A DNA stretch of 64,000 nt. Source: Minisyncoccota bacterium (GTDB taxonomy: Bacteria > Patescibacteriota > Microgenomatia > PFEM01 > JAFGMK01). Shown here in pieces: positions 8,756-56,352 of this stretch. The notes under the pieces are model-generated. The model had not been told where the DNA came from. It searched no databases and saw nothing but the letters and a program-made list of their open reading frames with translations. A program made the position numbers and the translations under genes. Numbering within the stretch: position 1 is the stretch's first letter; every line of letters starts with the position of its first letter. Location of the stretch: the NCBI GenBank assembly GCA_016927565.1, contig JAFGMK010000013.1, positions 8,796 to 72,795 of the forward strand, given 5' to 3'.

Positions 8756-9735
8756 ATGAAACCTAACAAACACCCTTTCCAAAAGCGAATAAGTTTTAAG
8801 GGCCAGCTTTCAGTATTGCTAAAAGAAATAGTTAGTGACTATCACTTTGGTAGTTACTTGAGTCATAAGGTCATTGGGGTGGGATACGAAGACTTTAATG
8901 TTATTGTCAAGACAAGTAAAGGTAAGTATTTCTTCAAGTTTTTTGCCGACTTTAGAAGTGAGATTGATTGCCAGCGCTATGTTGAGATCATGTTGGCAGC
9001 GGTTACTGGGGGAGTAAGCCATCCGAAGTTATACGAGTCTATAACCAGGGTTACTTTCACAAAATCAAAACTGAGGATGGCCTGGTCAGGCTGGTGGCTC
9101 TTGAGTATATCGACGGCAAGAGTTTTTTTGATCTCAAACAAAAACCAACTGCCAAGGAGAGGGACTTTCTGGTCAGGCAGGCAGCTTTGATTAACGGTCT
9201 TCAGATTAGACCTAAACTTTTTTATGACTACTGGGCGGTAGTTAATTTCTTAAAAGAATATCAAGAAGTTAAAAAACATCTTGAAAAAAAGGATATAAAA
9301 CTAATTGATCCTCTGGCCGAAAAGTTCAAGCAGGTAGATGTCAAAAGTCTGCCTCGTTGTCTTGTCCATGGCGACATCATTGAAACTAATGTTATCCGTA
9401 GCCAAAAAGGAAGATTGTATATTTTTGATTTTTCTGTTGCCAATATCTATCCCCGAATTCAGGAACTGGCGGTTATGCTCTGTGATATTCTTTTTGTCCC
9501 GGAAAGAGGAAAGTTCCAGGCAATTTACCAAAGAACCCTTGATGTCTACCAAAAGGAGATCAAGCTTGAAAAAGCTGAGATTGAGGCGCTGCCTCTTCTT
9601 GTCCGGGCGGCTCATGCGATGCATATTATTGGTTCGGTAAAATATGCTCTTGAAGAGGGGGATTTTGAAGAAAATAAACATTGGATAAAGATGGGGAGGG
9701 AGGGTTTGGCTTTTACTAGAAAGTTTCGGGGATAA
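8756..9735 (+). pseudogene. aminoglycoside/small-molecule phosphotransferase (APH/ChoK fold) split by a single frameshift near 9040-9100
   Basis: Two overlapping ORFs in different frames (8756-9190 and 9094-9735). The first carries a nucleotide-binding loop region. The second carries the Brenner motif HGDIIETN and the IFDFS metal-binding Asp. Reading across gives ...KLYES / NQGYFHKIKTEDGLVRLVALEYIDG. Confidence 0.6.
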
Positions 9736-10096
9736 ATTTAACTGTTACAACATAAAGGGGACAGCTCTCTTTTAGGTAGGGTATTCGTAGAAACTTCATC
9801 CGGAATGCAAGATGGGACTCCACACAGGAGAGACATTCGTCCATGTTATAATTTCTTCATTATGTCATCATTCCAGGTGGGGACGGTCAGAGCGGGACTC
9901 CAACTTTAGCCTCAAACAATCAGTCAGAGCGAGAATCAACATTTCCAAAGAGTAGGGTGATTCCTTTTCAATTTGCGGTCAAAATGCCTCCGCCAAGGTA
10001 CTATCCGATGATTTTGAAAAGAGATAAGCTAGGGAGGATTGTAAAGGCAAAATTTCCTCCAGCGGCTTTTTAGCTCCTAAGGGCCAAAAAACTCTA

Positions 10097-10139
10097 AAGA
10101 TAAGTTATAATGGGCATTAGTTTATGAAAAAAACAATCA
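10097..10139 (+). repeat. copy 2 of the duplicated promoter/leader repeat; supplies the -10 box and the ATG of the methyltransferase gene
   Basis: Same sequence as 7645-7687. The ATG at 10124 begins the 272-aa ORF. Confidence 0.7.
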
Positions 10140-10942
10140 AAACTTGTTATCAAGATCGAGCCCAGGACGAATGGCGACGACTCATTAAGGATAATTTCCA
10201 TCGTTTGGAATTTAAGACAACCCTTCACTTTCTAAAAAAATATTTGCCTAAGGAAGGTCTTATTCTTGATGCTGGCGGGGGGCCAGGCCGCTACACGATA
10301 GAACTTGCCAAACAGGGCTATGAAGTTGTCTTGCTTGATTTAACTCCTAAGCTCTTGAGGATTGCCAAGAAAAAAATTAAAAAAGCAAAGGTGGAAGATA
10401 AGGTTACGGATATTGTTGAGGGTTCGATTGTTGATCTGTCAAAATTCCCAGATAATAGTTTTGAGGCCGTTCTTTGTCTTGGCGGACCCCTGTCTCATGT
10501 CGAAGGTGAAAAAAAGCGTCAGAAAGCGGTTTCTGAATTAATCAGAGTGGCTAAAAAAGGGGCGCCAATTTTTGTATCGGTCATGGGAAGGCTAGGGCTT
10601 CTGATCGAAACGCCAATGTATTGGCCTGATGAGATTAAGCCTCGAGAACACTTTCGTTCTCTTTGGCAAGCAGGTGATGATCAAGCTTGGCGATGGGAAT
10701 ACTATTGCCACTTCTTCTTACCGGAAGAGTTAAAAAAGCTTTTTGCCTCAACTGGGAAAACCGAAATCGTCGATTGTGTTGGTCTTGAAGGTCTGGCTCA
10801 TGCGAAAAGAAAGATTAGCCAGTTGGCTTCTGGTTCACCTCAAGCTTGGAGAAATTGGCAGGAGGCTCACCTGGAGCTTTGTACCCATCCGGCTGTATTT
10901 GCGACGAGCAATCATATGATGATAATTTTGAAAAAAAAGTAA
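10124..10942 (+). CDS. class I SAM-dependent methyltransferase
   Basis: Motif I ILDAGGGPGRYTIELA with an acidic residue after beta2 (VVLLDLT). Confidence 0.75.
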   Translation: MKKTIKTCYQDRAQDEWRRLIKDNFHRLEFKTTLHFLKKYLPKEGLILDAGGGPGRYTIELAKQGYEVVLLDLTPKLLRIAKKKIKKAKVEDKVTDIVEGSIVDLSKFPDNSFEAVLCLGGPLSHVEGEKKRQKAVSELIRVAKKGAPIFVSVMGRLGLLIETPMYWPDEIKPREHFRSLWQAGDDQAWRWEYYCHFFLPEELKKLFASTGKTEIVDCVGLEGLAHAKRKISQLASGSPQAWRNWQEAHLELCTHPAVFATSNHMMIILKKK

Positions 10943-10961
10943 ACAAGTTGTCTTATTAAAA

Positions 10962-11432
10962 ATGAAAGTTAAAACTTTTTTACAGTATAAACATCAGCAA
11001 CAAGCTTACAAGATTTTTAAGTCTTATCCGAATCTTTTTACTAAAGCGGAGTTGAAAATTTTAAGGGAGGATTTAAAAACCGGTGACAATAAAAGCCACT
11101 TTAAGTTTGTGGCGGTGGACAAGGAGCAAGTAGTCGGTTTCATTAGCTTAGCTACTTGTTACGCTACCGACTATAGTTGGCAGGTTAACTGGCTTGCTGT
11201 TCATCCTGATTTTCAGCGTCTAGGAGTCGGCAGGTTGCTAATAAACTTTCTATTCCAAAAGGCTAAAAAACTAGGGTTAAAAAGGCTTTTTGTTGAAACC
11301 TGTAGTTGTCAGGGTGAAAAGCCAGCTAGATTGTTTTATCAGAAGCATGGCTTTAAAAAGATTGCCAGGTTGCCAGACTTTTATGCTAGGAAACATTCGA
11401 AGGTGATTTATTTAAAAAATATTGTAGAGTAA
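10962..11432 (+). CDS. GNAT family N-acetyltransferase
   Basis: Motif A FQRLGVGRLLINFLFQKA; length 156 aa. Confidence 0.75.
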   Translation: MKVKTFLQYKHQQQAYKIFKSYPNLFTKAELKILREDLKTGDNKSHFKFVAVDKEQVVGFISLATCYATDYSWQVNWLAVHPDFQRLGVGRLLINFLFQKAKKLGLKRLFVETCSCQGEKPARLFYQKHGFKKIARLPDFYARKHSKVIYLKNIVE

Positions 11433-11433
11433 G

Positions 11434-12015
11434 ATGAAAATTAAAGAACCGGCTTCTAAACAACCAATTCCACCTCATGCTAAAAGAGTTTTTAAGGGTA
11501 AGATATTTGATGTTTACCACTGGGAACAAAAATTATTTGATGGTTCCACGGCTACTTTTGAGAAAATAAAAAGACAAGATACAGTTAATGTTTTCCCAGT
11601 TACAAAGGAGGGTAAAATTATTCTTAGCCAGCAGAGACAGCCCGGCGGAAAGGGTTTTATCGGTTGTTTGGGAGGTAGAATTGACAAGGGCGAAACTCCG
11701 CTTGAGACAGCCAAAAGAGAGCTTCTAGAAGAGGCTGGTTTAAAAGCCAAGACGTGGCTTCTTTGGGACGCAAGACATCTTTTAGGTAAAATTGATTGGG
11801 CAATTTATACTTTTGTGGCTAAGGATTTAAAAAAGGTCGGTAAAATTCAATCTGATGCTGGCGAGAAAATAAAATTGATTCAAGTTTCTTTTGAACAGTT
11901 TTTAAAAACTGTCACCAGAGATAATTACCGAGATATAGAGATTGCTTTGATGCTTCTTAAAGCTAAAGAAGATCCAAAGAAGCTTAGCAAGATAAAAGAA
12001 CTGTTATTGAAATAA
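11434..12015 (+). CDS. NUDIX hydrolase
   Basis: Perfect Nudix box GGRIDKGETPLETAKRELLEEAGL (GX5EX7REUXEEXGU). Confidence 0.85.
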   Translation: MKIKEPASKQPIPPHAKRVFKGKIFDVYHWEQKLFDGSTATFEKIKRQDTVNVFPVTKEGKIILSQQRQPGGKGFIGCLGGRIDKGETPLETAKRELLEEAGLKAKTWLLWDARHLLGKIDWAIYTFVAKDLKKVGKIQSDAGEKIKLIQVSFEQFLKTVTRDNYRDIEIALMLLKAKEDPKKLSKIKELLLK

Positions 12016-12030
12016 GTAGAATAGTAATAA

Positions 12031-13047
12031 ATGAAGATTAATATTGATAAGCCAAAGATCTCTGAGCTAGGTGTACTCTTAGACTTGTGGCGGGGTCAGT
12101 ATGATTACCATCATGGTCTTGATGCTGAGTATTATGTGGCTAATTCTCTGGTTCTTGATAAGAAGTTTAGAGTCTATCTTGAAAAAGCAATAAACAAAAA
12201 TGATCCTTTTATACTGGCCGCTTACGAGGGAGGCAAGCTTGTTGGTTTTATTACTTTTGAAATTTCCAAAGCCGACTACTTCGACACTAAAATTAAAAGG
12301 TACGGTGAGGTGATTGAGCTTTTTGTTGATAAGGCTTATCGAGGTAAAGGAATTGGCAAAAAGCTAATGCGAGCGACCGAGGATTTTTTCAAAAGCAAGT
12401 CAATTTCTTATATCAAACTCCAATGCTCAACCTTTAATAAAAAGGCGATTGGTTTTTACCAGCACCTGAGTTATATTAACCGCCAAGTTTTTATGTTTAA
12501 AAGAATCGTGTCTGAGATGACATCGGAATATGTTGTTGATTTATATATGGACTTAGAGGGCCAAGGAGTTAAGATTTGGTTAGATGGTGGTTGGGGAGTT
12601 GATGCCCTACTTGGTAAACAAACCCGACCTCACGAGGATGTTGATATTGTTATCCAAAAAAAGAATCTTGGCAAACTCCGGAAATTCTTGGAAGAGAGAG
12701 GATATCATGATGTAGAAAGACCAGACACTAAGCCCCACAACTTTGTTTTAGGCGATGATGAGGGCCATTTGTTTGATATCCACGTTATTGTTATTGATTC
12801 CAAAGGCGATGGGATTTATGGCCCGCCCGAAAAGGGTGAGAAGTATCCGGCTGACTCTTTAACTGGGAAGGGGACAATTAGTGGTCAAGCAGTAAGGTGT
12901 ATTTCAGCCAAGCGAATGGTCGAGTTTCATACTGGCTATGACCCCAGAGAAACTGATTATAAGGATGTTGCTGCTTTGTGCAAGAAGTTTGGGATAAAAT
13001 TACCTAAGGTGTATGTCCATTTTAAAAAGAAGCAGGAGAAAAGATGA
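12031..13047 (+). CDS. two-domain protein: N-terminal GNAT acetyltransferase fused to a C-terminal ANT(2'')/AadB-like nucleotidyltransferase
   Basis: N-terminal GNAT motif A YRGKGIGKKLM. The C-terminal IWLDGGWGVDALLGKQTRPHEDVDIV ... GQAVRCISAKRMVEF aligns by eye with AadB LWIGGGWAIDARLGRVTRKHDDIDL ... GRPVRCNSWEAII. Confidence 0.7.
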   Translation: MKINIDKPKISELGVLLDLWRGQYDYHHGLDAEYYVANSLVLDKKFRVYLEKAINKNDPFILAAYEGGKLVGFITFEISKADYFDTKIKRYGEVIELFVDKAYRGKGIGKKLMRATEDFFKSKSISYIKLQCSTFNKKAIGFYQHLSYINRQVFMFKRIVSEMTSEYVVDLYMDLEGQGVKIWLDGGWGVDALLGKQTRPHEDVDIVIQKKNLGKLRKFLEERGYHDVERPDTKPHNFVLGDDEGHLFDIHVIVIDSKGDGIYGPPEKGEKYPADSLTGKGTISGQAVRCISAKRMVEFHTGYDPRETDYKDVAALCKKFGIKLPKVYVHFKKKQEKR

Positions 13048-19209: not shown

Positions 19210-20400
19210 ATGGAAACATCTCAGAAGCAAAATAAATACGCCGTCAGGTTCTTTCTTTTTCTAGCTGTTTTTTTTCTTTTGGGAACAGCAGTAATTGGAG
19301 GGGCCGGACTGGACCGGTATTTCAAGTTTTCTTTTCTTGATGACTGGTTTCCCCGGTCGGAGTCCGGGGCATCTCAAATTGTTTCTCAGCGGATTCTGAA
19401 TGAAGAATCTCGGGTGATTGAGGTGGTGGAAAAAGTCGGCCAGTCAGTGGTAACGATTAATATTTCCAAAAAACAAGTGGTTTCTCCATTTGGCGGAATT
19501 GATTTGGGCCCGTTTGGTTTTTTTGGACCGTCAATTGGCGGTCGGGAAGAGCAGATTGAACAAGATATCGGCAGCGGTTTTATTATTTCGTCTGACGGTT
19601 TAATTGTCACTAACCGTCATGTTGTTGAAGACCGGGAAGCTGATTATAAAGTTATTACGAGCGATGATCAGACTTATGAAGTGGAAAAGATATACCGGGA
19701 TCAAGTTAATGACTTGGCGATTTTAAAGATTAATGGCGGGGATTTGAAGCCGGTTGAATTGGGTGACTCCGATAAGCTCAAAGTTGGCCAATTTGTAATT
19801 GCGATCGGAACTGCCTTGGGAGAGTTTAGAACTACTGTTACTACCGGGGTGATTTCCGGTTTAGGCCGGGGAATTACAGCCGGTTCGCCGTTTGAGGGTT
19901 ATGTTGAACAAATCGACAATGTAATCCAGACTGATGCGGCCATTAATCCGGGCAACTCAGGCGGGCCGCTTTTGAACAGCTTGGGACAGGTGATTGGAGT
20001 AAATGTTGCCGTGGCTCCTCAAGGAGAAAATATTGCTTTTGCCATCCCGATTGATGTTATTAAAGAAAGCCTGGATAATTTTAATGATACCGGCCAGTTC
20101 AGCCGGCCTTTTTTGGGAGTGCGTTACCGGATGGTTGGTCAGGATCTGGCGATTATGGCTGAAGTTCCCCAGGGAGCTTATATTGAAGAAGTGATTGTCG
20201 GGACTCCGGCTGAAGCGGCCGGTCTTAAAGCCGGTGACATTATCACCCGGTTTGAGGGCCAGCCGGTGAGAGATGATAAGGGCGGTTTAGCCAAATTAAT
20301 CAACCAGAAAAAAGTTAACAGCCGGATCCGTCTGACTGTTTGGCGAAATGGCAGCGAAAGCGAAATCGAAGTAGTTTTAAAAGAAGTTGATAATAATTAG
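19210..20400 (+). CDS. htrA: HtrA/DegP-family serine protease (trypsin-like plus PDZ)
   Basis: Catalytic His (VTNRHVV), Asp (NDLAILKI) and Ser (NPGNSGGPLLN), plus a C-terminal PDZ domain. Confidence 0.9.
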   Translation: METSQKQNKYAVRFFLFLAVFFLLGTAVIGGAGLDRYFKFSFLDDWFPRSESGASQIVSQRILNEESRVIEVVEKVGQSVVTINISKKQVVSPFGGIDLGPFGFFGPSIGGREEQIEQDIGSGFIISSDGLIVTNRHVVEDREADYKVITSDDQTYEVEKIYRDQVNDLAILKINGGDLKPVELGDSDKLKVGQFVIAIGTALGEFRTTVTTGVISGLGRGITAGSPFEGYVEQIDNVIQTDAAINPGNSGGPLLNSLGQVIGVNVAVAPQGENIAFAIPIDVIKESLDNFNDTGQFSRPFLGVRYRMVGQDLAIMAEVPQGAYIEEVIVGTPAEAAGLKAGDIITRFEGQPVRDDKGGLAKLINQKKVNSRIRLTVWRNGSESEIEVVLKEVDNN

Positions 20401-21095
20401 GTAAATTTTGAATTTTTCAGGGTCTTAACCACTTTTTCCAGATTGCCGTCAAGAATTTCTTCCAGATTGTACCATTTTTTATTGACCCGATGATCAGTAA
20501 TGCGGCTGTTGGGATAGTTGTAGGTTCTGATTTTCTCTGAGCGCATTCCCCGGCCGACAGCGGCTCGACGGAGTCCGGTAAGCTGTTTTTGTTTTTTTTC
20601 TTCTTCCCGCTGCCAAATTTTAGCCCGTAAAAGCTCCAGGGCTATTTTGCGATTTTGTTCTTGGAATCGTTCCTGTTCGCAGGTGGCAAGTAAGCCGGTG
20701 GGTTTATGGGTAACTCTGACAGCAGTGGAAACTTTCTGAACATTTTGACCTCCCTGAGTTGAGGCGCGGTAAAATTGCCAGTCGAGATCAGCGGGATTAA
20801 TTTTGATTTCGGTTTCCGGAATCAGGGGCAAAACCGCGACCGAAGCAGTTGAAGTGTGGATTCGGCCGTAGCGCTCGGTAGCAGGAATTCGCTGAACCCG
20901 ATGAACGCCGGCCTCGGTTTTCAGGCTTTCATAGGCTTCAGGGCCGTTGATCCGCAGAGTATTTTTTCCGGGCAATTTTACTTGCCAGCCTTTTTTTTGG
21001 CTGAAACGAAGATACATCCTCAGGAGATCATCCGCCCAAATTTTAGCTTCATCCCCTCCGGCGGCAGGCCTGATTTCGACAAGACAACTAGCCAC
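20397..21095 (-). CDS. class-I peptide chain release factor, RF1-type (PAT and GGQ motifs), lacking the entire N-terminal domain 1; GTG start
   Basis: Begins at the RF1 EIRPAAGGDEA region, which lies near residue 120 in full-length RF1. Has RIPATERYGRIHTS and GGQ. An in-frame TAA lies two codons upstream, and an rpmE terminator hairpin abuts the start. Confidence 0.75.
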   Translation of the reverse strand: MASCLVEIRPAAGGDEAKIWADDLLRMYLRFSQKKGWQVKLPGKNTLRINGPEAYESLKTEAGVHRVQRIPATERYGRIHTSTASVAVLPLIPETEIKINPADLDWQFYRASTQGGQNVQKVSTAVRVTHKPTGLLATCEQERFQEQNRKIALELLRAKIWQREEEKKQKQLTGLRRAAVGRGMRSEKIRTYNYPNSRITDHRVNKKWYNLEEILDGNLEKVVKTLKNSKFT

Positions 21096-21097
21096 TT

Positions 21098-21126
21098 TTT
21101 AAAAAAAAGACACTCCAAGAGTGTCT
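21098..21126 (-). terminator. Rho-independent terminator of rpmE (agacactc-ttgg-gagtgtct plus T8 on the minus strand)
   Basis: Hairpin followed by a T-run on the minus strand, directly 3' of rpmE. Confidence 0.7.
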
Positions 21127-21145
21127 GCAGATTAATAAGATTAAT

Positions 21146-21472
21146 TTAGCCTTTTTTCAGCATTTCCCGTAAGCTCTTGGGTCTTTCTCTTTCTTTTCTT
21201 TCTTCTTCAAGCCGTTTGATTTTCTCACTAGTTTCTCGTCTGATTTTTTTCTTGACAAAAATTTCTTTTTTGGCTTTAGCTTGTTTCTTTTGAAATTTTT
21301 CCACTTTTCCGAGAGTGTCAACATATTTCATCTCGCCGGTAAAAAAGGGATGACAGGCGGAGCAAATTTCAACTTCTATCTTGGGTTTAGTTGAGCCGGT
21401 AGTAAAAGTATTGCCGCAGGCACAAACAACCTGAGCTTGAGGATAATAAGTCGGATGAACTTTCTTTTTCAT
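21146..21472 (-). CDS. rpmE: 50S ribosomal protein L31 (zinc-binding type) with a long Lys/Glu-rich C-terminal extension
   Basis: CACG...CSACHPFF zinc ribbon. Total 108 aa against about 70 typical. Confidence 0.8.
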
Positions 21473-41931: not shown

Positions 41932-42375
41932 ACCGGAAAGGGGAGAGGAGTAAAGAGGATCACATCCTATAATAATTTAAGTTATCTAGTTTTCACAAAA
42001 AAAATTCTTTTTTCACAAAAAAAGCAATTCTTAACAGGTTTTGCTAATTTTTTTAAAAAAACGGTCAGGTTTCAAACGGGTAGACCGGGGCGAGCAGAGG
42101 GTTACATCTCCCTTCCCGTTTTTAGGCTTAAAATTGAAGAAAAGATAGCTGTTTCGAGCAAAACGAAGTAATTTTTGGGATAATTTTTTGATATTGTTTG
42201 ATATAGTATCCAAGTCCGGCTGTGGAAAACTGGAAATGCATAAAAAATAACCTTGCTTCTTTTCGTAAAAAAAGGCTAGACCATAATTTATTAAATATTT
42301 TATTTTTCAATTAATAAGATTACTTTCCCCTGAAGAAGAAAAGCGGAAACTATTCTGCGGTGGAGAATCAATTTG

Positions 42376-42391
42376 ATTAATGTCGCACAAT
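42376..42391. repeat. direct repeat copy A (ATTAATGTCGCACAAT)
   Basis: 15/16 identical to 43004-43019, lying 628 bp apart upstream of the Xer-like recombinase gene. Confidence 0.6.
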
Positions 42392-43003
42392 GATACTTTT
42401 GCGACAATCTTGGGCAATCGACTCGGGGGAGAGTGTGGCAGGTTCAAAATCGGCCGTTTCGGACTTTCTAAAATAAAAAAAATTTTTAACCTGGGCATTT
42501 TTTTATATTTTTCTTAAAAAGAATTAAAATCAGCCTTCTTTTATTTTCCGTTTTTTCTTGTTCTTCTTCAGCCTGAAATAAAATCAGACTCCCCTGCCCT
42601 TTTTTGATTAAAAAAAGAAGGGTTTTTTCATCATTGCCTAAATAAAGAGGTCTTAGATGAACGCTGGTGACTTGGCTAAGTTTGAAATATCTTGGGTTTT
42701 TTTGTTTTTTTATCCAAAATAAGATAGAATAATTTATTATTTTATTTTGAAAATATGATATCAAAAGAAAGACCCACTGTAATAGTCAGATACGGCGGCC
42801 AGGATGAAACTGAACAATTACAATCGGCTCTTGCCAAATTGGGAATGAGGGGGATCAGCACCGATCCCGGTGATTCACCCCGGATGCGGGTTTACATTCC
42901 CGGCAAAATGGGTTTTTTAACTCTGACTTCGGGTCTGGAACAGGAAATTGCCAACCTGGTGAATTTCGAGATAAACTTCCGTCTTTTGGAATGAACTCCA
43001 ACT

Positions 43004-43019
43004 ATTCATGTCGCACAAT
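43004..43019. repeat. direct repeat copy B (ATTCATGTCGCACAAT)
   Basis: See copy A; located 200 bp upstream of the recombinase start. Confidence 0.6.
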
Positions 43020-43220
43020 AGTTGATTATTTTAAAAAAAAATGCTATGCTTCAGCCAGTCCATTTCAGCCTGCCCGGTTTGGGAAAATGGGTGGGAAGTT
43101 TTTTTGATTGGTTAAGAAAAAAATAAATTTTTTGGCAATGCGAAATATCTAAAACTATAGGACTACTCCCCTTCCCCATTATAGGGTATCAGTCAGATAA
43201 AAATTAGTTATTAGTCAGAA

Positions 43221-44177
43221 ATGAAAAGAAATTTGAGTCTGAATCAATTAATTGAAGAGTTTTTAGAAGGCCTGGAAATCGAAAAGAACTGTTCTCCTTT
43301 GACGATTCGCAACTATCATCACTATCTGAACCGATTTGCCGGCTGGTTTACCCAAAATTTTCCCAAAAGTAGCCTGGCAAATCTGGATTTGGATAAAGTT
43401 AGAAAATTCAGGATTCATTTAGCCCGATTTACGGGTCAAAACGGGCAAAAGCTCTCTCTTGTCACTCAATCTTACCATGTGATAGCCTTGCGCTCCTTCT
43501 TAAAGTGGCTTAGAAAGTTTGATTATAAGACGCTGGCCCCGGAAAAGATTGACCTGCCGAAGGTTAAATCCCGGTCGTTGAAGTTCCTTAACACCATTCA
43601 AACGGAGCGGCTGCTGGCTCAGCCGGGTCTGTCGACTCTTCGCGGCCTTCGGGATAAAGCAATTTTGGAAATAATATTTTCTACAGGACTTCGTGTTTCC
43701 GAAACTGCAAAATTGGATCGGAACCAATTGGATTTGGACCGGCGGGAATTCGGAGTAGTAGGTAAGGGTGGTCGGGCAAGGGTTGTTTTTTTATCTCCCC
43801 GGGCGGCTAAATGGGTAGGTCGTTATTTGGAGAAAAGAAAAGATAATTTTAAACCATTGTTTATTGCCCACCGGGAAAAAGAAGATCAGGAAAAAATAGC
43901 GGAGAATCGGTCTGACGAACAAATGAGACTAAGCCCCCGGACAATTCAGCGGCTGGTAAAAAAATATGCCCGAAAAGCCAAGTTGCCGATCGAGGTGACT
44001 CCCCATGTTCTTCGTCACAGTTTTGCGACCGATCTTTTGATGGCTGGAGCTGACCTGCGATCGGTCCAGGAAATGCTGGGTCACAAGAACATTGCTACCA
44101 CTCAGATCTATACTCATGTCACTAACCGCCAGCTAAAAGACGTCCACGCTGCTTTTCATGGCAAGGGAGGTAATTAA
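43221..44177 (+). CDS. site-specific tyrosine recombinase, XerC/XerD family
   Basis: N-terminal SAM-like core-binding domain. Catalytic R...HxxR...Y: LRVSE, HVLRHSFATDLL and IATTQIYTHV. Confidence 0.85.
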   Translation: MKRNLSLNQLIEEFLEGLEIEKNCSPLTIRNYHHYLNRFAGWFTQNFPKSSLANLDLDKVRKFRIHLARFTGQNGQKLSLVTQSYHVIALRSFLKWLRKFDYKTLAPEKIDLPKVKSRSLKFLNTIQTERLLAQPGLSTLRGLRDKAILEIIFSTGLRVSETAKLDRNQLDLDRREFGVVGKGGRARVVFLSPRAAKWVGRYLEKRKDNFKPLFIAHREKEDQEKIAENRSDEQMRLSPRTIQRLVKKYARKAKLPIEVTPHVLRHSFATDLLMAGADLRSVQEMLGHKNIATTQIYTHVTNRQLKDVHAAFHGKGGN

Positions 44178-52307: not shown

Positions 52308-54044
52308 ATGAACAGCCTGCCCGTTCAGCCAAAACCGGCATCTTTTTTTTCGTTGGCTGATGTTTTGGCAGAAAAAGGGGCCATTACTCCGGATCAGCTT
52401 GAAGCGATTAAGCTGGAAAGCGTTTCTCAGAGCAGGCCGGTTGAGGAAATTATTCAGGAAAGAAATCTGGCTTCGCCAGATCAGCTGGCCCAAGCCAAAG
52501 GCCAACTCTACCGGATACCCTTTATCAATCTGGCTGATATCGGGATTTCGCCAACGGCTTTAAACCTCATTCCCCGGCCGGTAGCAGAAAACTTTGGCAT
52601 GATTCCCTTTGCTTATGATCGGGAAAAGAATGAGCTTTCTTTGGCGATGAGCGATCCGCTCAATTTGGATGCAATTAAATTTTCCGAACGCAAGTCAAAC
52701 GCCAAAATTATCCCCTACATTGCTCCGCTTGAAATCATCAGGAAAGCAATTGAAGAAAGATATGCTCAGAGTCTGGCAACTGAGGTTAAGGCTGCCCTCA
52801 AGAAGACGGGCTATGAGGCTTCGGTAAAACAAAAAGCAGTTGATATTACTCAATTGGGCTCAGTTATCAGAGAGGCGCCGATTGCAAAAATTGTTGCCAC
52901 TGTCTTGGAGTTTGCTATTAAGGCCAGAGCTTCCGATATTCATATCGAGCCTCAGGAAGAAAAAATTAGAGTCCGTTATCGGATTGATGGCATTTTGCAT
53001 GAAAAATTAGTTTTGCCCAAAAGCCTTCATGAGGCGATTATTTCCCGGATCAAAATCCTTTCGGAAATGAAGATTGATGAAAAGAGGATCCCCCAGGACG
53101 GACGGTTCACTTTTAGGGCAAATACCCGAATGGTTGACTTGCGGGTTTCTTGTTTGCCGACTGTTCATGGAGAGAAGATTGTAATGAGGCTTTTAAAAAA
53201 GGGAGGCGGAGTTCTTGATTTGCCGGATCTGGGTTTAAGAGGCCGGGCTTTAAAGAATCTCGAAGACGCGATCTTGAGGCCTCACGGAATCATTCTGGTT
53301 TGCGGACCGACCGGATCAGGGAAAACGACGACTCTTTATTCGGTCCTTTCCCGGATTAACTCCAGCCGGGTTAACATTTTAACTTTGGAAGATCCGGTGG
53401 AGTACGAAATCCAAGGGGTAAATCAAGTTCAGGTAAATCGGGGTGCCGGTCTGACCTTTGCTTCGGGGCTGAGAAGTTTTTTGCGTCAGGACCCGAACAT
53501 TATTATGGTCGGTGAAATTCGGGATGAAGAAACAACTGATTTGGCTATTCAGGCTGCTTTAACCGGTCACCTGGTTTTTTCAACTCTCCATACTCGGAAT
53601 GCCTCCGGGGCTTTGCCGCGTCTTTTGGATCTCAAGGCTGAGCCTTTTTTGCTGGCTTCTTCAATTACCTGTATTGTCGGTCAGCGGGTCGGCCGACGAA
53701 TTTGCGACGAGTGCAAAGAAGCTTATGAACCAACTCCGGAAGTAGTTGAAAGTATCAAAGATGTTTTGGGTAATCTTTACAAACCGGCCGACAAGATTAA
53801 ACTCTATCGGGGGAAAGGCTGTCCGATTTGCAACAATACCGGCTACATGGAAAGGGTAGGGATTTTTGAGGTTCTGCCGATAACCGAGAAAGTAGGGCGG
53901 CTAATTTTGGAGAGAACTGACTCGTCGGCAATTGAGAAACAGGCGGTTGAAGAAGGAATGATTACAATGAAGGAGGACGGCTTTCTTAAGGTTCTTGAGG
54001 GCGTTTCCAGCCTGGAAGAAATTTTAAGGGTAGCCGAAACTTAA
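52308..54044 (+). CDS. pilB: type IV pilus assembly ATPase PilB (GspE family)
   Basis: N-terminal GSPII_E_N domain, Walker A GPTGSGKTTTLYS, Asp and His boxes, and a tetra-Cys zinc motif. Confidence 0.9.
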   Translation: MNSLPVQPKPASFFSLADVLAEKGAITPDQLEAIKLESVSQSRPVEEIIQERNLASPDQLAQAKGQLYRIPFINLADIGISPTALNLIPRPVAENFGMIPFAYDREKNELSLAMSDPLNLDAIKFSERKSNAKIIPYIAPLEIIRKAIEERYAQSLATEVKAALKKTGYEASVKQKAVDITQLGSVIREAPIAKIVATVLEFAIKARASDIHIEPQEEKIRVRYRIDGILHEKLVLPKSLHEAIISRIKILSEMKIDEKRIPQDGRFTFRANTRMVDLRVSCLPTVHGEKIVMRLLKKGGGVLDLPDLGLRGRALKNLEDAILRPHGIILVCGPTGSGKTTTLYSVLSRINSSRVNILTLEDPVEYEIQGVNQVQVNRGAGLTFASGLRSFLRQDPNIIMVGEIRDEETTDLAIQAALTGHLVFSTLHTRNASGALPRLLDLKAEPFLLASSITCIVGQRVGRRICDECKEAYEPTPEVVESIKDVLGNLYKPADKIKLYRGKGCPICNNTGYMERVGIFEVLPITEKVGRLILERTDSSAIEKQAVEEGMITMKEDGFLKVLEGVSSLEEILRVAET

Positions 54045-54067
54045 TATTTTAGAAACGGAGAAAAAAA

Positions 54068-55135
54068 ATGACAATCGAAGATTTGCTTAACCTGGCTTTT
54101 ACTGAAAAGGCTTCAGATCTCCATTTGGTGGTTGATTTGCCGCCGATTTTACGAGTTAACGGGGTTATCTTAACTGTTCCCAACGAACCGTTATTGACAA
54201 CAGAAAGAAACGAAGAGCTGATTTTCTCACTTTTCACCGAAGAACAAAAAGAAACTTTTCTGATTAACAAGGAAATTGATTTTTCCGTGTCTTTAAAAGA
54301 TTTGGCCCGTTTTCGGGTTAATGCCTATTATGAAAAAGGCCGGCCGGCGGCTTCTTTAAGACTGATTCCTAATCAAATTATTCCCATTGATGATCTCGGC
54401 TTGCCGAAAATCAGTCATGATTTTGCCAAGTTGAAGCAGGGGTTGATTTTAGTCACCGGTCCGACCGGACACGGAAAATCAACCACTCTGGCGGCCATTA
54501 TTGATGAGATTAACGAGTTAAGGAGAGAACATATTGTGACGATTGAGGATCCGATTGAATATGTCCATCATCATAAAAAATCGATTATCTCCCAGCGGGA
54601 GCTGCGATCAGATACTCATTCGTGGGAGATTGCTCTCCGGTCGGTATTAAGGGAGGATCCGAATATAGTTTTAATTGGCGAGATGAGAGATTATGAAACA
54701 ATTGCCGCTGCTTTGACAATTGCCGAAACAGGTCATTTGGTCTTTGCTACCCTGCACACTAATTCAGCGGCCCAAACGGTAGACAGAATTGTTGATGTTT
54801 TCCCGCCTCACCAACAGCAACAAGTGAGAACTCAGCTGGCTTTTGTTTTGGAGGCGATTGTTTCCCAAAGACTAATCCCCTCTTTGGATGAAAGCCGGGT
54901 GGTTGCCTGTGAAATTCTTTTGGCAAATTCGGCAGTAAGAAATTCTGTCCGTGAAGGACAAACCCATTTGATCGACAACATTATCCAAACCTCGATTGAA
55001 ATGGGAATGATTACTTTAGAAATGGATTTAGCCAGATTAGTTAAAACCGGCAAAATCAGCTATGAACAGGCCAAGAATTTTGCCTTAAGACCGAAAGAGC
55101 TGGTTCGTCAGGTGAGCCGGTTAAAAAAGATTTAA
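54068..55135 (+). CDS. pilT: type IV pilus retraction ATPase PilT
   Basis: Walker A GPTGHGKSTTLAA and length 355 aa without the N-terminal extension. Confidence 0.9.
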   Translation: MTIEDLLNLAFTEKASDLHLVVDLPPILRVNGVILTVPNEPLLTTERNEELIFSLFTEEQKETFLINKEIDFSVSLKDLARFRVNAYYEKGRPAASLRLIPNQIIPIDDLGLPKISHDFAKLKQGLILVTGPTGHGKSTTLAAIIDEINELRREHIVTIEDPIEYVHHHKKSIISQRELRSDTHSWEIALRSVLREDPNIVLIGEMRDYETIAAALTIAETGHLVFATLHTNSAAQTVDRIVDVFPPHQQQQVRTQLAFVLEAIVSQRLIPSLDESRVVACEILLANSAVRNSVREGQTHLIDNIIQTSIEMGMITLEMDLARLVKTGKISYEQAKNFALRPKELVRQVSRLKKI

Positions 55136-55143
55136 GACGGGAC

Positions 55144-56352
55144 ATGATCAAATTTGATTATTATGCTCGCGATCCCCAAGGTAAGCCAAAAAAGGGAATT
55201 GTCGAAGCTATTGACCGGAATCAAGCAGCCTTAATCCTCCGCAGAATGGGCTTGATTTTAATTGAGATTAAGGTGAGGAAAGAAAGCTTTTTGACAAAGA
55301 TTCAGAGAGTTTTTTTAAGCCGGGTGAAAATAGATGATGTCGTCAATTTCACCCGCCAGCTGTCAACAATGATCAATGCCGGTCTGGTTATCACTGATGC
55401 CATGGTAATCCTCCGATCCCAGACAGAAAATCCCCGAATGGTTACCATTGTTGATTCGCTTCAAAAAGATATTGAGGGGGGAAAGAGTGCCTCTGAGGCG
55501 ATGGCCAGGTTTCCTCAGGTTTTTGATTCGGTTTATGTATCTTTAGTCCGCTCAGGAGAGACAGCGGGTATTCTAGATAAAATTTTGAGTCGGCTGGCAG
55601 ATAATTTAGAAAAAAAAAGAGATTTTCTGGGCAAGATTAAAGGAGCAATGGTTTATCCGGTTATCATTGTTACCGGCATGATTTTGGTGGCGGCGGTGAT
55701 GATGATTTTTGTAATCCCCAAACTGCTTGATCTTTATCAGGAATTTGAAGCAACTTTGCCGCTGGCAACAATGGTTTTGATGTCGGTTTCTAAATTTATG
55801 GCTCGTTTCTGGTGGTTGCTTTTGATTTTGGTCGGTTCTTTAGTTTGGGGATTCAGGCTTATTTTAAAAACTGAAACAGGGCGGCTGAAAATGGATTCAA
55901 TTATTTTTGCTTTGCCGGTAATCGGCAAGCTCAGGAGATCGATGATGTTGACTGAGTTTACCCGCACTTTCGGGTTATTGGTTGAGGGTGGAGTGTTGGT
56001 GGTTGAATCACTGGGTGTAGCCGAAGGAGCAATGGGAAGCCCGATTTATAAAAAAGCAGTATCTCAGGCTACGGCGGAAGTTGAAAGGGGGACTTCTCTG
56101 GCAGTTGCTCTGAGCCGAACCGAAGCTTTTCCTCCTCTCTTGTCACAAATGGTTTCAGTAGGCGAAGAAACCGGCAAGCTGGATGAAGTACTTTTAAAAA
56201 TTGCTTCTTATTTTGAGCAAGAGGCCTCAGCCGCAGTTCGGAATTTAACTACAGCGATTGAACCGATTATTATGATTGTTATGGGGATCGGAGTAACTTT
56301 TTTAATCATTGCTGTGATCATGCCGATCTATAACCTGACGAGTCAGTTTTAA
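55144..56352 (+). CDS. pilC: type IV pilus platform protein PilC (GspF family)
   Basis: Two T2SSF repeats with three TMs; 402 aa. Confidence 0.9.
   Translation: MIKFDYYARDPQGKPKKGIVEAIDRNQAALILRRMGLILIEIKVRKESFLTKIQRVFLSRVKIDDVVNFTRQLSTMINAGLVITDAMVILRSQTENPRMVTIVDSLQKDIEGGKSASEAMARFPQVFDSVYVSLVRSGETAGILDKILSRLADNLEKKRDFLGKIKGAMVYPVIIVTGMILVAAVMMIFVIPKLLDLYQEFEATLPLATMVLMSVSKFMARFWWLLLILVGSLVWGFRLILKTETGRLKMDSIIFALPVIGKLRRSMMLTEFTRTFGLLVEGGVLVVESLGVAEGAMGSPIYKKAVSQATAEVERGTSLAVALSRTEAFPPLLSQMVSVGEETGKLDEVLLKIASYFEQEASAAVRNLTTAIEPIIMIVMGIGVTFLIIAVIMPIYNLTSQF

Follow-up and report, generated by a model that had tools for sequence, protein, structure and literature searches.

A release factor 1 without domain 1, encoded beside rpmE in a Minisyncoccota genome and recurring in related Patescibacteria

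Results

Gene structure and family assignment

We analysed a stretch of 64,000 nucleotides (nt) from a Minisyncoccota bacterium (assembly GCA_016927565.1, contig JAFGMK010000013.1, positions 8,796 to 72,795 of the forward strand); this whole stretch is referred to below as the window. On its minus strand, directly downstream of rpmE, the gene for ribosomal protein bL31, lies an open reading frame (ORF) for a class-I peptide chain release factor (RF) of the RF1 type (Table 1). A previous sequence-only reading of the window had placed this feature at 20397-21145; the ORF itself ends at 21095, and the remainder of that interval is the 50-nt spacer that reaches up to the rpmE stop codon. The same reading had recognised the PAT tripeptide of RF1 and the GGQ motif, both of which are present, at residues 71–73 and 115–117; the tripeptide sits inside VHRVQRIPATERYGRIHTST. 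It had also put the start of the protein at about residue 119 of Escherichia coli RF1. By alignment, the start codon corresponds to residue 108, and it is the EIRPAAGGDEA motif that falls in the region named, at E. coli residues 114–124. This motif includes the tip of helix alpha5 with the GGxE element, which in published structures of canonical RF1 on the ribosome reads the U1 position of the stop codon.

Table 1. Features of the RF1 locus in the window and length forms of RF1 at related loci
Feature	Position or number of loci	Strand	Details
Coding sequence of domain-1-less release factor 1	20397..21095	minus	232 amino acids (aa), GTG start; TAA stop 20397..20399 included; ORF list, Pfam, NCBIfam, PDB match, AlphaFold (AF2) model
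GTG start codon	21093..21095	minus	aligned with E. coli RF1 residue 108
EIRPAAGGDEA, protein residues 7-17	21045..21077	minus	first strand of domain 2 and tip of helix alpha5
PAT tripeptide 'anticodon', residues 71-73	20877..20885	minus	aligned with E. coli P188-A189-T190
GGQ catalytic motif, residues 115-117	20745..20753	minus	aligned with E. coli G233-G234-Q235
In-frame TAA closing the RF1 frame	21099..21101	minus	two codons before GTG (TAA AAA GTG)
rpmE (bL31, 108 aa), conserved upstream partner	21146..21472	minus	Pfam and NCBIfam L31
Terminator-like hairpin (8-bp stem, 3-nt loop) and T8	21101..21126	minus	terminator scan, RNA fold
Short RF1 form	about 23 loci		227-236 aa
Intermediate RF1 form	1 locus (L021)		254 aa
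Long RF1 form	10 loci		293-338 aa

As had been claimed, the RF1 frame cannot be extended in the 5′ direction, because an in-frame TAA closes it two codons upstream of the GTG. A Shine-Dalgarno (SD) sequence was likewise said to be missing, and we found none within 17 nt of the GTG. Given that an SD-like motif precedes only 20 of the 62 long ORFs in the window, such a start is normal for the source genome. Stop codon usage in the same set of ORFs indicates which factors the organism requires: TAG ends 11 of the 62, and RF1 activity is therefore needed, whereas TGA ends 15 of the 62, such that some RF2 must exist in the genome. At its 3′ end, the RF1 gene converges with a plus-strand gene for an HtrA-like protease. 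The two stop codons (TAA for RF1, TAG for the protease) overlap in TTAG at 20397-20400, and hence there is no intergenic room for terminators between the genes.

Family and structure comparisons agreed on the identity of the protein. Pfam matched the RF-1 domain in full and PCRF only over profile positions 101–194 of 194. Among NCBIfam models, those for RF1 scored highest (NF001859, 306.8 bits; TIGR00019, 299.4 bits), with matches beginning at profile positions 105 of 347 and 114 of 361, respectively. The protein does not fit RF2: the tripeptide is PAT rather than SPF, and the RF2 model (TIGR00020) scored 209 against a cutoff of 370. The ArfB model reached 47 bits against a cutoff of 100, and the window protein has domains 2 and 4, unlike factors of the ArfB/ICT1 type, which consist of a GGQ domain and a basic C-terminal tail. 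The best match in the PDB was RF1 of Thermotoga maritima, over residues 88–320 (1.5e-71); RF2 structures reached 1e-43. An AF2 model built from 52 orthologues (predicted local distance difference test, pLDDT, 79.8) superimposed on closed-form RF1 (1rq0) with a template modelling (TM) score of 0.82 and a root-mean-square deviation of 3.2 Å. The protein retains the GGDE of the alpha5 tip, the PAT loop, RIHTS, the switch loop and the GGQ domain. P71, T73, G115, G116 and Q117 are invariant across the 52 orthologues, as are G13, G14, E16 and A17, H80-T81-S82, and the switch-loop residues R185, E187, K188 and T191-Y192-N193. We conclude that the window protein is an RF1 that has domains 2, 3 and 4 in full but no domain 1.

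RF1 length forms in related genomes

The best 120 matches among 5.8 billion proteins were all 225–247 aa long, at 64–80% identity. Their sources were named as Pacebacteria, Shapirobacteria, Microgenomates group or Patescibacteria, with several on contigs of 406–847 kb, and the short proteins carry source names such as 'PCRF domain-containing protein' or 'release factor-like'. In a library clustered at 50% identity, short proteins made up only a few close clusters, and the remainder of the best 150 matches were ordinary RF1 proteins of 340–370 aa. One of the close clusters is represented by GenBank KKU58406.1, a 256-aa protein titled 'Peptide chain release factor 1 [Candidatus Amesbacteria ...]'.

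We scanned GTDB species representatives with peptide patterns, which yielded 35 loci, and read ±10 kb around each gene. Short, intermediate and long forms of RF1 were found (Table 1). Short forms open with 'MNxxIAIIEIRGAAGGDEAKIW'; relative to the IEIRxAAGGDEA motif, the start codons of the orthologues lie 2–10 residues further upstream and are mostly ATG. Long forms have a helical N-terminus of about 70 residues, homologous to the final helices of domain 1 in E. coli, but even these Microgenomates proteins are without about 42 residues of that domain. All Microgenomates forms, short or long, lack a 10-residue hairpin in domain 2 (E. coli residues 151–160).

The absence of domain 1 could in principle be an artefact of sequencing or assembly, which the sequence-only reading had allowed for, or an N-terminal domain could have been missed through a wrongly called start. 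The only argument for this is the prior expectation of about 360 aa for an RF1. The same architecture recurs in assemblies made independently and deposited at NCBI, JGI, ENA and Logan, one of them a closed Roizmanbacteria chromosome of 1.10 Mb (L032), and at each related locus the frame is shut by an in-frame stop a short way upstream. We therefore regard an artefact as almost inconceivable, and conclude that a short RF1 is the normal state in large groups of the candidate phyla radiation (CPR)/Patescibacteria.

Some individual sequences among the relatives deserve mention. The short RF1 of a Shapirobacteria contig (PFLE01000004.1; L017:9986-10684) reads GGH in place of GGQ (SSHGGHNVQK), which may be a sequencing error or may mark an inactive or altered factor. 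In three long-form proteins (L023, L026 and L030; for example L023:1291-2307), domain 2 carries a Lys/Gln-rich insertion of 23–29 aa directly before a conserved Y-x-x-L-K-x-E-x-G-V-H-R, and L029 has 10 aa at the same place. Many contigs whose gene content is clearly of Microgenomates type (L001, L002, L004, L006, L007 and others) bear record titles such as 'uncultured Gammaproteobacteria bacterium', 'Bathyarchaeia archaeon' or 'Thermodesulfovibrionales', so that taxonomic labels in these metagenome-assembled genome records are unreliable.

Locus conservation and selection

The RF1 gene adjoins rpmE in 32 of the 35 GTDB loci. In 27 of them rpmE lies directly upstream; in the Roizmanbacteria-like clade it lies downstream, and further contigs beyond this set have the two genes adjacent as well. 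A wider gene order is common to the window and its relatives, with hisS-EamA-rpmE-RF1 on one side and htrA-ctpB-x-rpsR-ssb-rpsF-ychF on the other. Sister lineages carry, at the same rpmE locus, the 293–338-aa RF1 with its residual domain 1. Since the short gene stands where other lineages have the long form, it is orthologous to prfA rather than an additional paralog, and we conclude that the rpmE-RF1 adjacency is ancestral and common to both forms. Linkage with rpmE is also a feature of Firmicutes-type gene orders, as in rpmE-tdk-prfA of Bacillus subtilis.

These observations bear on whether the gene might be a specialised second factor, PrfH-like or dedicated to ribosome rescue, with a canonical full-length RF1 encoded elsewhere in the genome. 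PrfH is also without domain 1 (PMC1586002), and the sequence-only reading had listed such a paralog among its options. However, the PrfH model (TIGR03072) gave 57.4 bits against a cutoff of 166.65 and matched the GGQ domain alone, the decoding motifs are those of canonical RF1 and are invariant, the upstream partner is rpmE and not rtcB, and the locus is the one at which sister lineages keep their longer RF1. Moreover, each of the 35 GTDB assemblies was matched by the patterns at one locus only, despite DEAKIWAD being common to long and short forms. We consider a specialised paralog unlikely. Searches of the window by tblastn with the ORF, E. coli RF1 and E. coli RF2 detected no further release-factor-like sequence, and neither the window nor the flanks of the related loci contain prfB, prfC, prmC or rplK.

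Between short orthologues, the ratio of non-synonymous to synonymous substitution rates (dN/dS) was 0.02–0.07 where dS was not saturated, which indicates that the short RF1 gene is under purifying selection. A 5′-truncated pseudogene or decaying remnant, left behind when rpmE came to lie next to it, had been suggested, and the GTG start with no SD, directly after a terminator-like hairpin, speaks for it. Quite apart from the low dN/dS and the invariance of catalytic and decoding residues, hundreds of orthologues of the same length exist in divergent lineages, and TAG stops are in use in the window. Nor does the proposed history hold: the adjacency to rpmE is ancestral and common to long and short forms. 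Some relatives do have a longer RF1 gene here, but with rpmE still beside it, and not elsewhere as in the case that the sequence-only reading had raised. Hence, we judge a pseudogene to be highly improbable.

Recurrence of domain 1 loss

We built a bootstrapped neighbour-joining tree of domains 2–4, in which deep nodes were weak. The 254-aa protein of L021 was nested in a long-form clade with 100% support, and a Roizmanbacteria-like short clade also had 100% support. All short forms together were monophyletic in only 6 of 100 replicates. A second short family (L040–L043; for example L040:5738-6729) has a 242-aa RF1 with the domain-2 hairpin intact. In this family, the rpmE stop codon overlaps the RF1 start codon (ATGA), and the flanking genes differ, with rpsB-tsf upstream. 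Its best 120 matches were mostly 231–247 aa long, with some of 289–309 aa, lay on contigs of up to 542 kb, and were named Portnoybacteria or Patescibacteria; Portnoybacteria belongs to the Parcubacteria group. Given that separate short families occur in Microgenomates and in Parcubacteria, the two big CPR groups have seen at least two losses of domain 1, and probably further ones.

One related contig raises the question of whether the RF1 gene is split, with domain 1 encoded separately and either acting in trans or joined to the remainder by recoding. In this EamA-rpmE-RF1 locus (L039:1468-2424), an in-frame TAG in the linker separates a 56-aa domain-1 ORF from a 242-aa RF ORF. The latter covers domains 2–4, starts at the usual 'MVILEIR' position and has RIHPS instead of RIHTS; in a relative, the linker is intact. 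The arrangement, known from a single 2.7-kb contig, may be an intermediate in domain loss, a site of UAG read-through or autoregulation, or an error. For the window itself, a split gene is very unlikely. A tblastn search with E. coli RF1 found no domain 1 in the window, a domain-1 hidden Markov model run on six-frame ORFs of the window and of the 35 related loci with their flanks matched only the N-termini of long forms, and the spacers to rpmE measure 0–50 nt. A database search with the domain-1 profile, which has poor sensitivity, returned 3 matches only.

rpmE and the intergenic spacer

The rpmE terminator hairpin with a run of eight T residues, described earlier as sitting immediately 5′ of the RF1 gene, is indeed found in the 50-nt gap, and is specific to this genome. 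Read 5′ to 3′ along the minus strand, the junction is AAAGGC TAA (the rpmE stop), ATTAATCTTATTAATCTGC, AGACACTC TTG GAGTGTCT, TTTTTTT, AAAAA, GTG. The hairpin AGACACTC-TTG-GAGTGTCT spans 21126..21108 and the T8 run 21108..21101. No such hairpin was present in the rpmE-RF1 spacers of 28 relatives, which are 0–36 nt long with no stable structure, and we therefore rejected it as a conserved regulatory element. With spacers of this kind, rpmE and RF1 are evidently co-transcribed in the relatives, and often translationally coupled. In the window, the T-run lies too close to the GTG for a promoter to fit between them; the sole promoter-like match nearby is weak (9 of 12) and lies inside the start of rpmE. 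We also rejected a fusion of rpmE and RF1 by frameshifting or read-through, since the genes are in different frames and the stop/start junctions in relatives are clean.

The bL31 protein consists of a Pfam L31 domain (residues 1–63) followed by a C-terminal extension of about 40 aa that is rich in Lys, Glu and Arg. In relatives, L31 is 94–119 aa long whichever the length of RF1, such that the extension is lineage-wide. The idea that this extension compensates for the loss of domain 1 was rejected, because lineages with a long RF1 have the same extended L31.

Other features of the window

An Rfam scan of the window detected one tRNA only. A region of about 1.3 kb (41932-43220), directly upstream of a gene for a XerC/D-type tyrosine recombinase (43221-44177), contains no ORF of at least 100 aa and no Rfam match. 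A cluster of genes for small-molecule-modifying proteins at 9094-13047 encodes an APH-like phosphotransferase fragment, a methyltransferase, a GNAT acetyltransferase and a NUDIX protein, together with a 338-aa fusion of a GNAT domain and an aminoglycoside-2''-adenylyltransferase domain (12031-13047). At 52308-56352 lies a set of type IV pilus/type II secretion-like genes, with PilB-like and PilT-like ATPases and a PilC-like platform protein; such gene sets are common in CPR genomes.

Discussion

We conclude, with a probability of roughly 0.8, that the gene is the organism's orthologous prfA and encodes a functional class-I RF1 that lost domain 1 in the course of evolution. A naturally domain-1-less release factor was among the options raised by the sequence-only reading, and it is the one supported by the orthologues of the same length, the purifying selection and the orthologous locus. 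It is probably the only RF1 of its genome. As judged from its conserved motifs, the factor would bind the ribosomal A site, decode UAA and UAG, and hydrolyse peptidyl-tRNA. Without domain 1, it would probably be independent of RF3 and leave the ribosome spontaneously, without docking to the L11 stalk. Transcription most probably proceeds from the rpmE promoter with read-through of the hairpin, in which case the hairpin-T8 element would act as a leaky terminator that lowers the output of RF1 relative to L31 in this genome. Translation would start independently of an SD sequence, at the GTG within an A/U-rich stretch.

In canonical RF1, domain 1 reaches the L11/L7-L12 stalk, and RF3 requires domain 1. 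Work with E. coli constructs is the main source for this role in stalk docking and RF3 coupling, and essentially all textbook RF1 and RF2 proteins have domain 1. It is the least conserved domain of these factors, and their interaction with RF3 depends on it (PMC1586002, citing Mora et al. 2003). E. coli RF1 from which domain 1 has been removed carries out codon-specific peptide release in vitro and is functional in vivo, and RF3 is not stimulated (PMC1586002, citing Mora et al. 2003). RF3 itself is absent from 72 of 191 genomes, most of the small ones included, and weaker RF binding has been proposed as a compensation (PMC1780047).

Several observations weigh against a functional RF1 that has simply dispensed with domain 1. 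The protein misses the RF1 equivalog cutoffs (306.8 bits against 400 for NF001859, and 299.4 against 423.25 for TIGR00019); this shortfall is due purely to the missing 105 or so profile positions, about a third of the profile. A GTG start that has no SD and lies 5 nt past a terminator-like hairpin makes the level of RF1 expression uncertain. Finally, many bacteria that lack RF3, such as Bacillus and Mycoplasma, keep domain 1. Given that most RF3-less bacteria do so, loss of RF3 alone does not explain loss of domain 1, and we conclude that the latter is an additional step that does not follow automatically from RF3 absence. Loss of domain 1 fits the generally reduced translation apparatus of CPR bacteria, in which uL30, bL9 and uL1 are missing and rRNAs are shortened, in an account that leaves release factors unmentioned (PMC9297842).

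Short RF1 sequences have been public since 2015, some of them labelled RF1, and a short RF1 is ordinary for its own lineage. In the searchable literature, however, we found no description of CPR lineages whose resident RF1 naturally lacks domain 1. For the termination field the finding is moderately surprising and experimentally useful. Lineages that live with such a factor would show that domain 1 is dispensable in nature, and would provide natural material on the recycling of class-I factors without RF3. The finding would also extend the pared-down CPR translation apparatus (PMC9297842) to termination factors. A practical point concerns annotation-based surveys, which may wrongly score genomes as lacking prfA, because the proteins do not reach the curated RF1 cutoffs and go by names such as 'PCRF domain-containing' or 'release factor-like'.

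We propose, much more tentatively and as an idea more apt to fail than to hold, that several Patescibacteria lineages independently rebuilt termination around a minimal class-I factor. The proposal would take in at least two families, at least one further reduction within Microgenomates, and graded lengths of about 330, 300, 255 and 230 aa. RF1, and possibly RF2, would then operate without L11/L7-L12 stalk contact or RF3, with release achieved through weakened binding or a changed ribosome. If this is true, termination with minimal factors would be a natural experiment on the purpose of domain 1.

Compared with canonical RF1 (360 aa in E. coli; 342 aa in T. maritima, PDB 1rq0), the window protein is alike in domains 2–4, the PxT loop, GGQ, the switch loop and the alpha5 tip, with about 42–47% identity over the common region, and differs in lacking both the domain 1 of about 105–110 residues and the 10-residue beta-hairpin of domain 2. 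The same architecture of domains 2–4 was reached in N-terminally truncated E. coli RF1 and RF2 (Mora et al. 2003, Mol Microbiol 50:1467, via PMC1586002). That engineered construct recognises stop codons and releases peptides and is not recycled by RF3 (Mora et al. 2003, via PMC1586002), and it supports only slow growth, according to a reviewer's comment (PMC1586002). Whereas the construct is artificial, whole lineages naturally carry a truncation of the kind seen in the window, under selection. PrfH (RFH), the partner of RtcB2, resembles the window protein in lacking domain 1, keeping GGQ and measuring about 200–230 aa. However, PrfH is an accessory paralog with altered decoding motifs that always accompanies an rtcB-like gene, whereas the window protein has canonical motifs and follows rpmE. 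ArfB (YaeJ) and the mitochondrial ICT1 and mtRF-R likewise belong to the class-I RF superfamily in reduced form and keep the GGQ domain. They have no codon-recognition domains 2 and 4 and act independently of stop codons, whereas the window protein keeps both domains.

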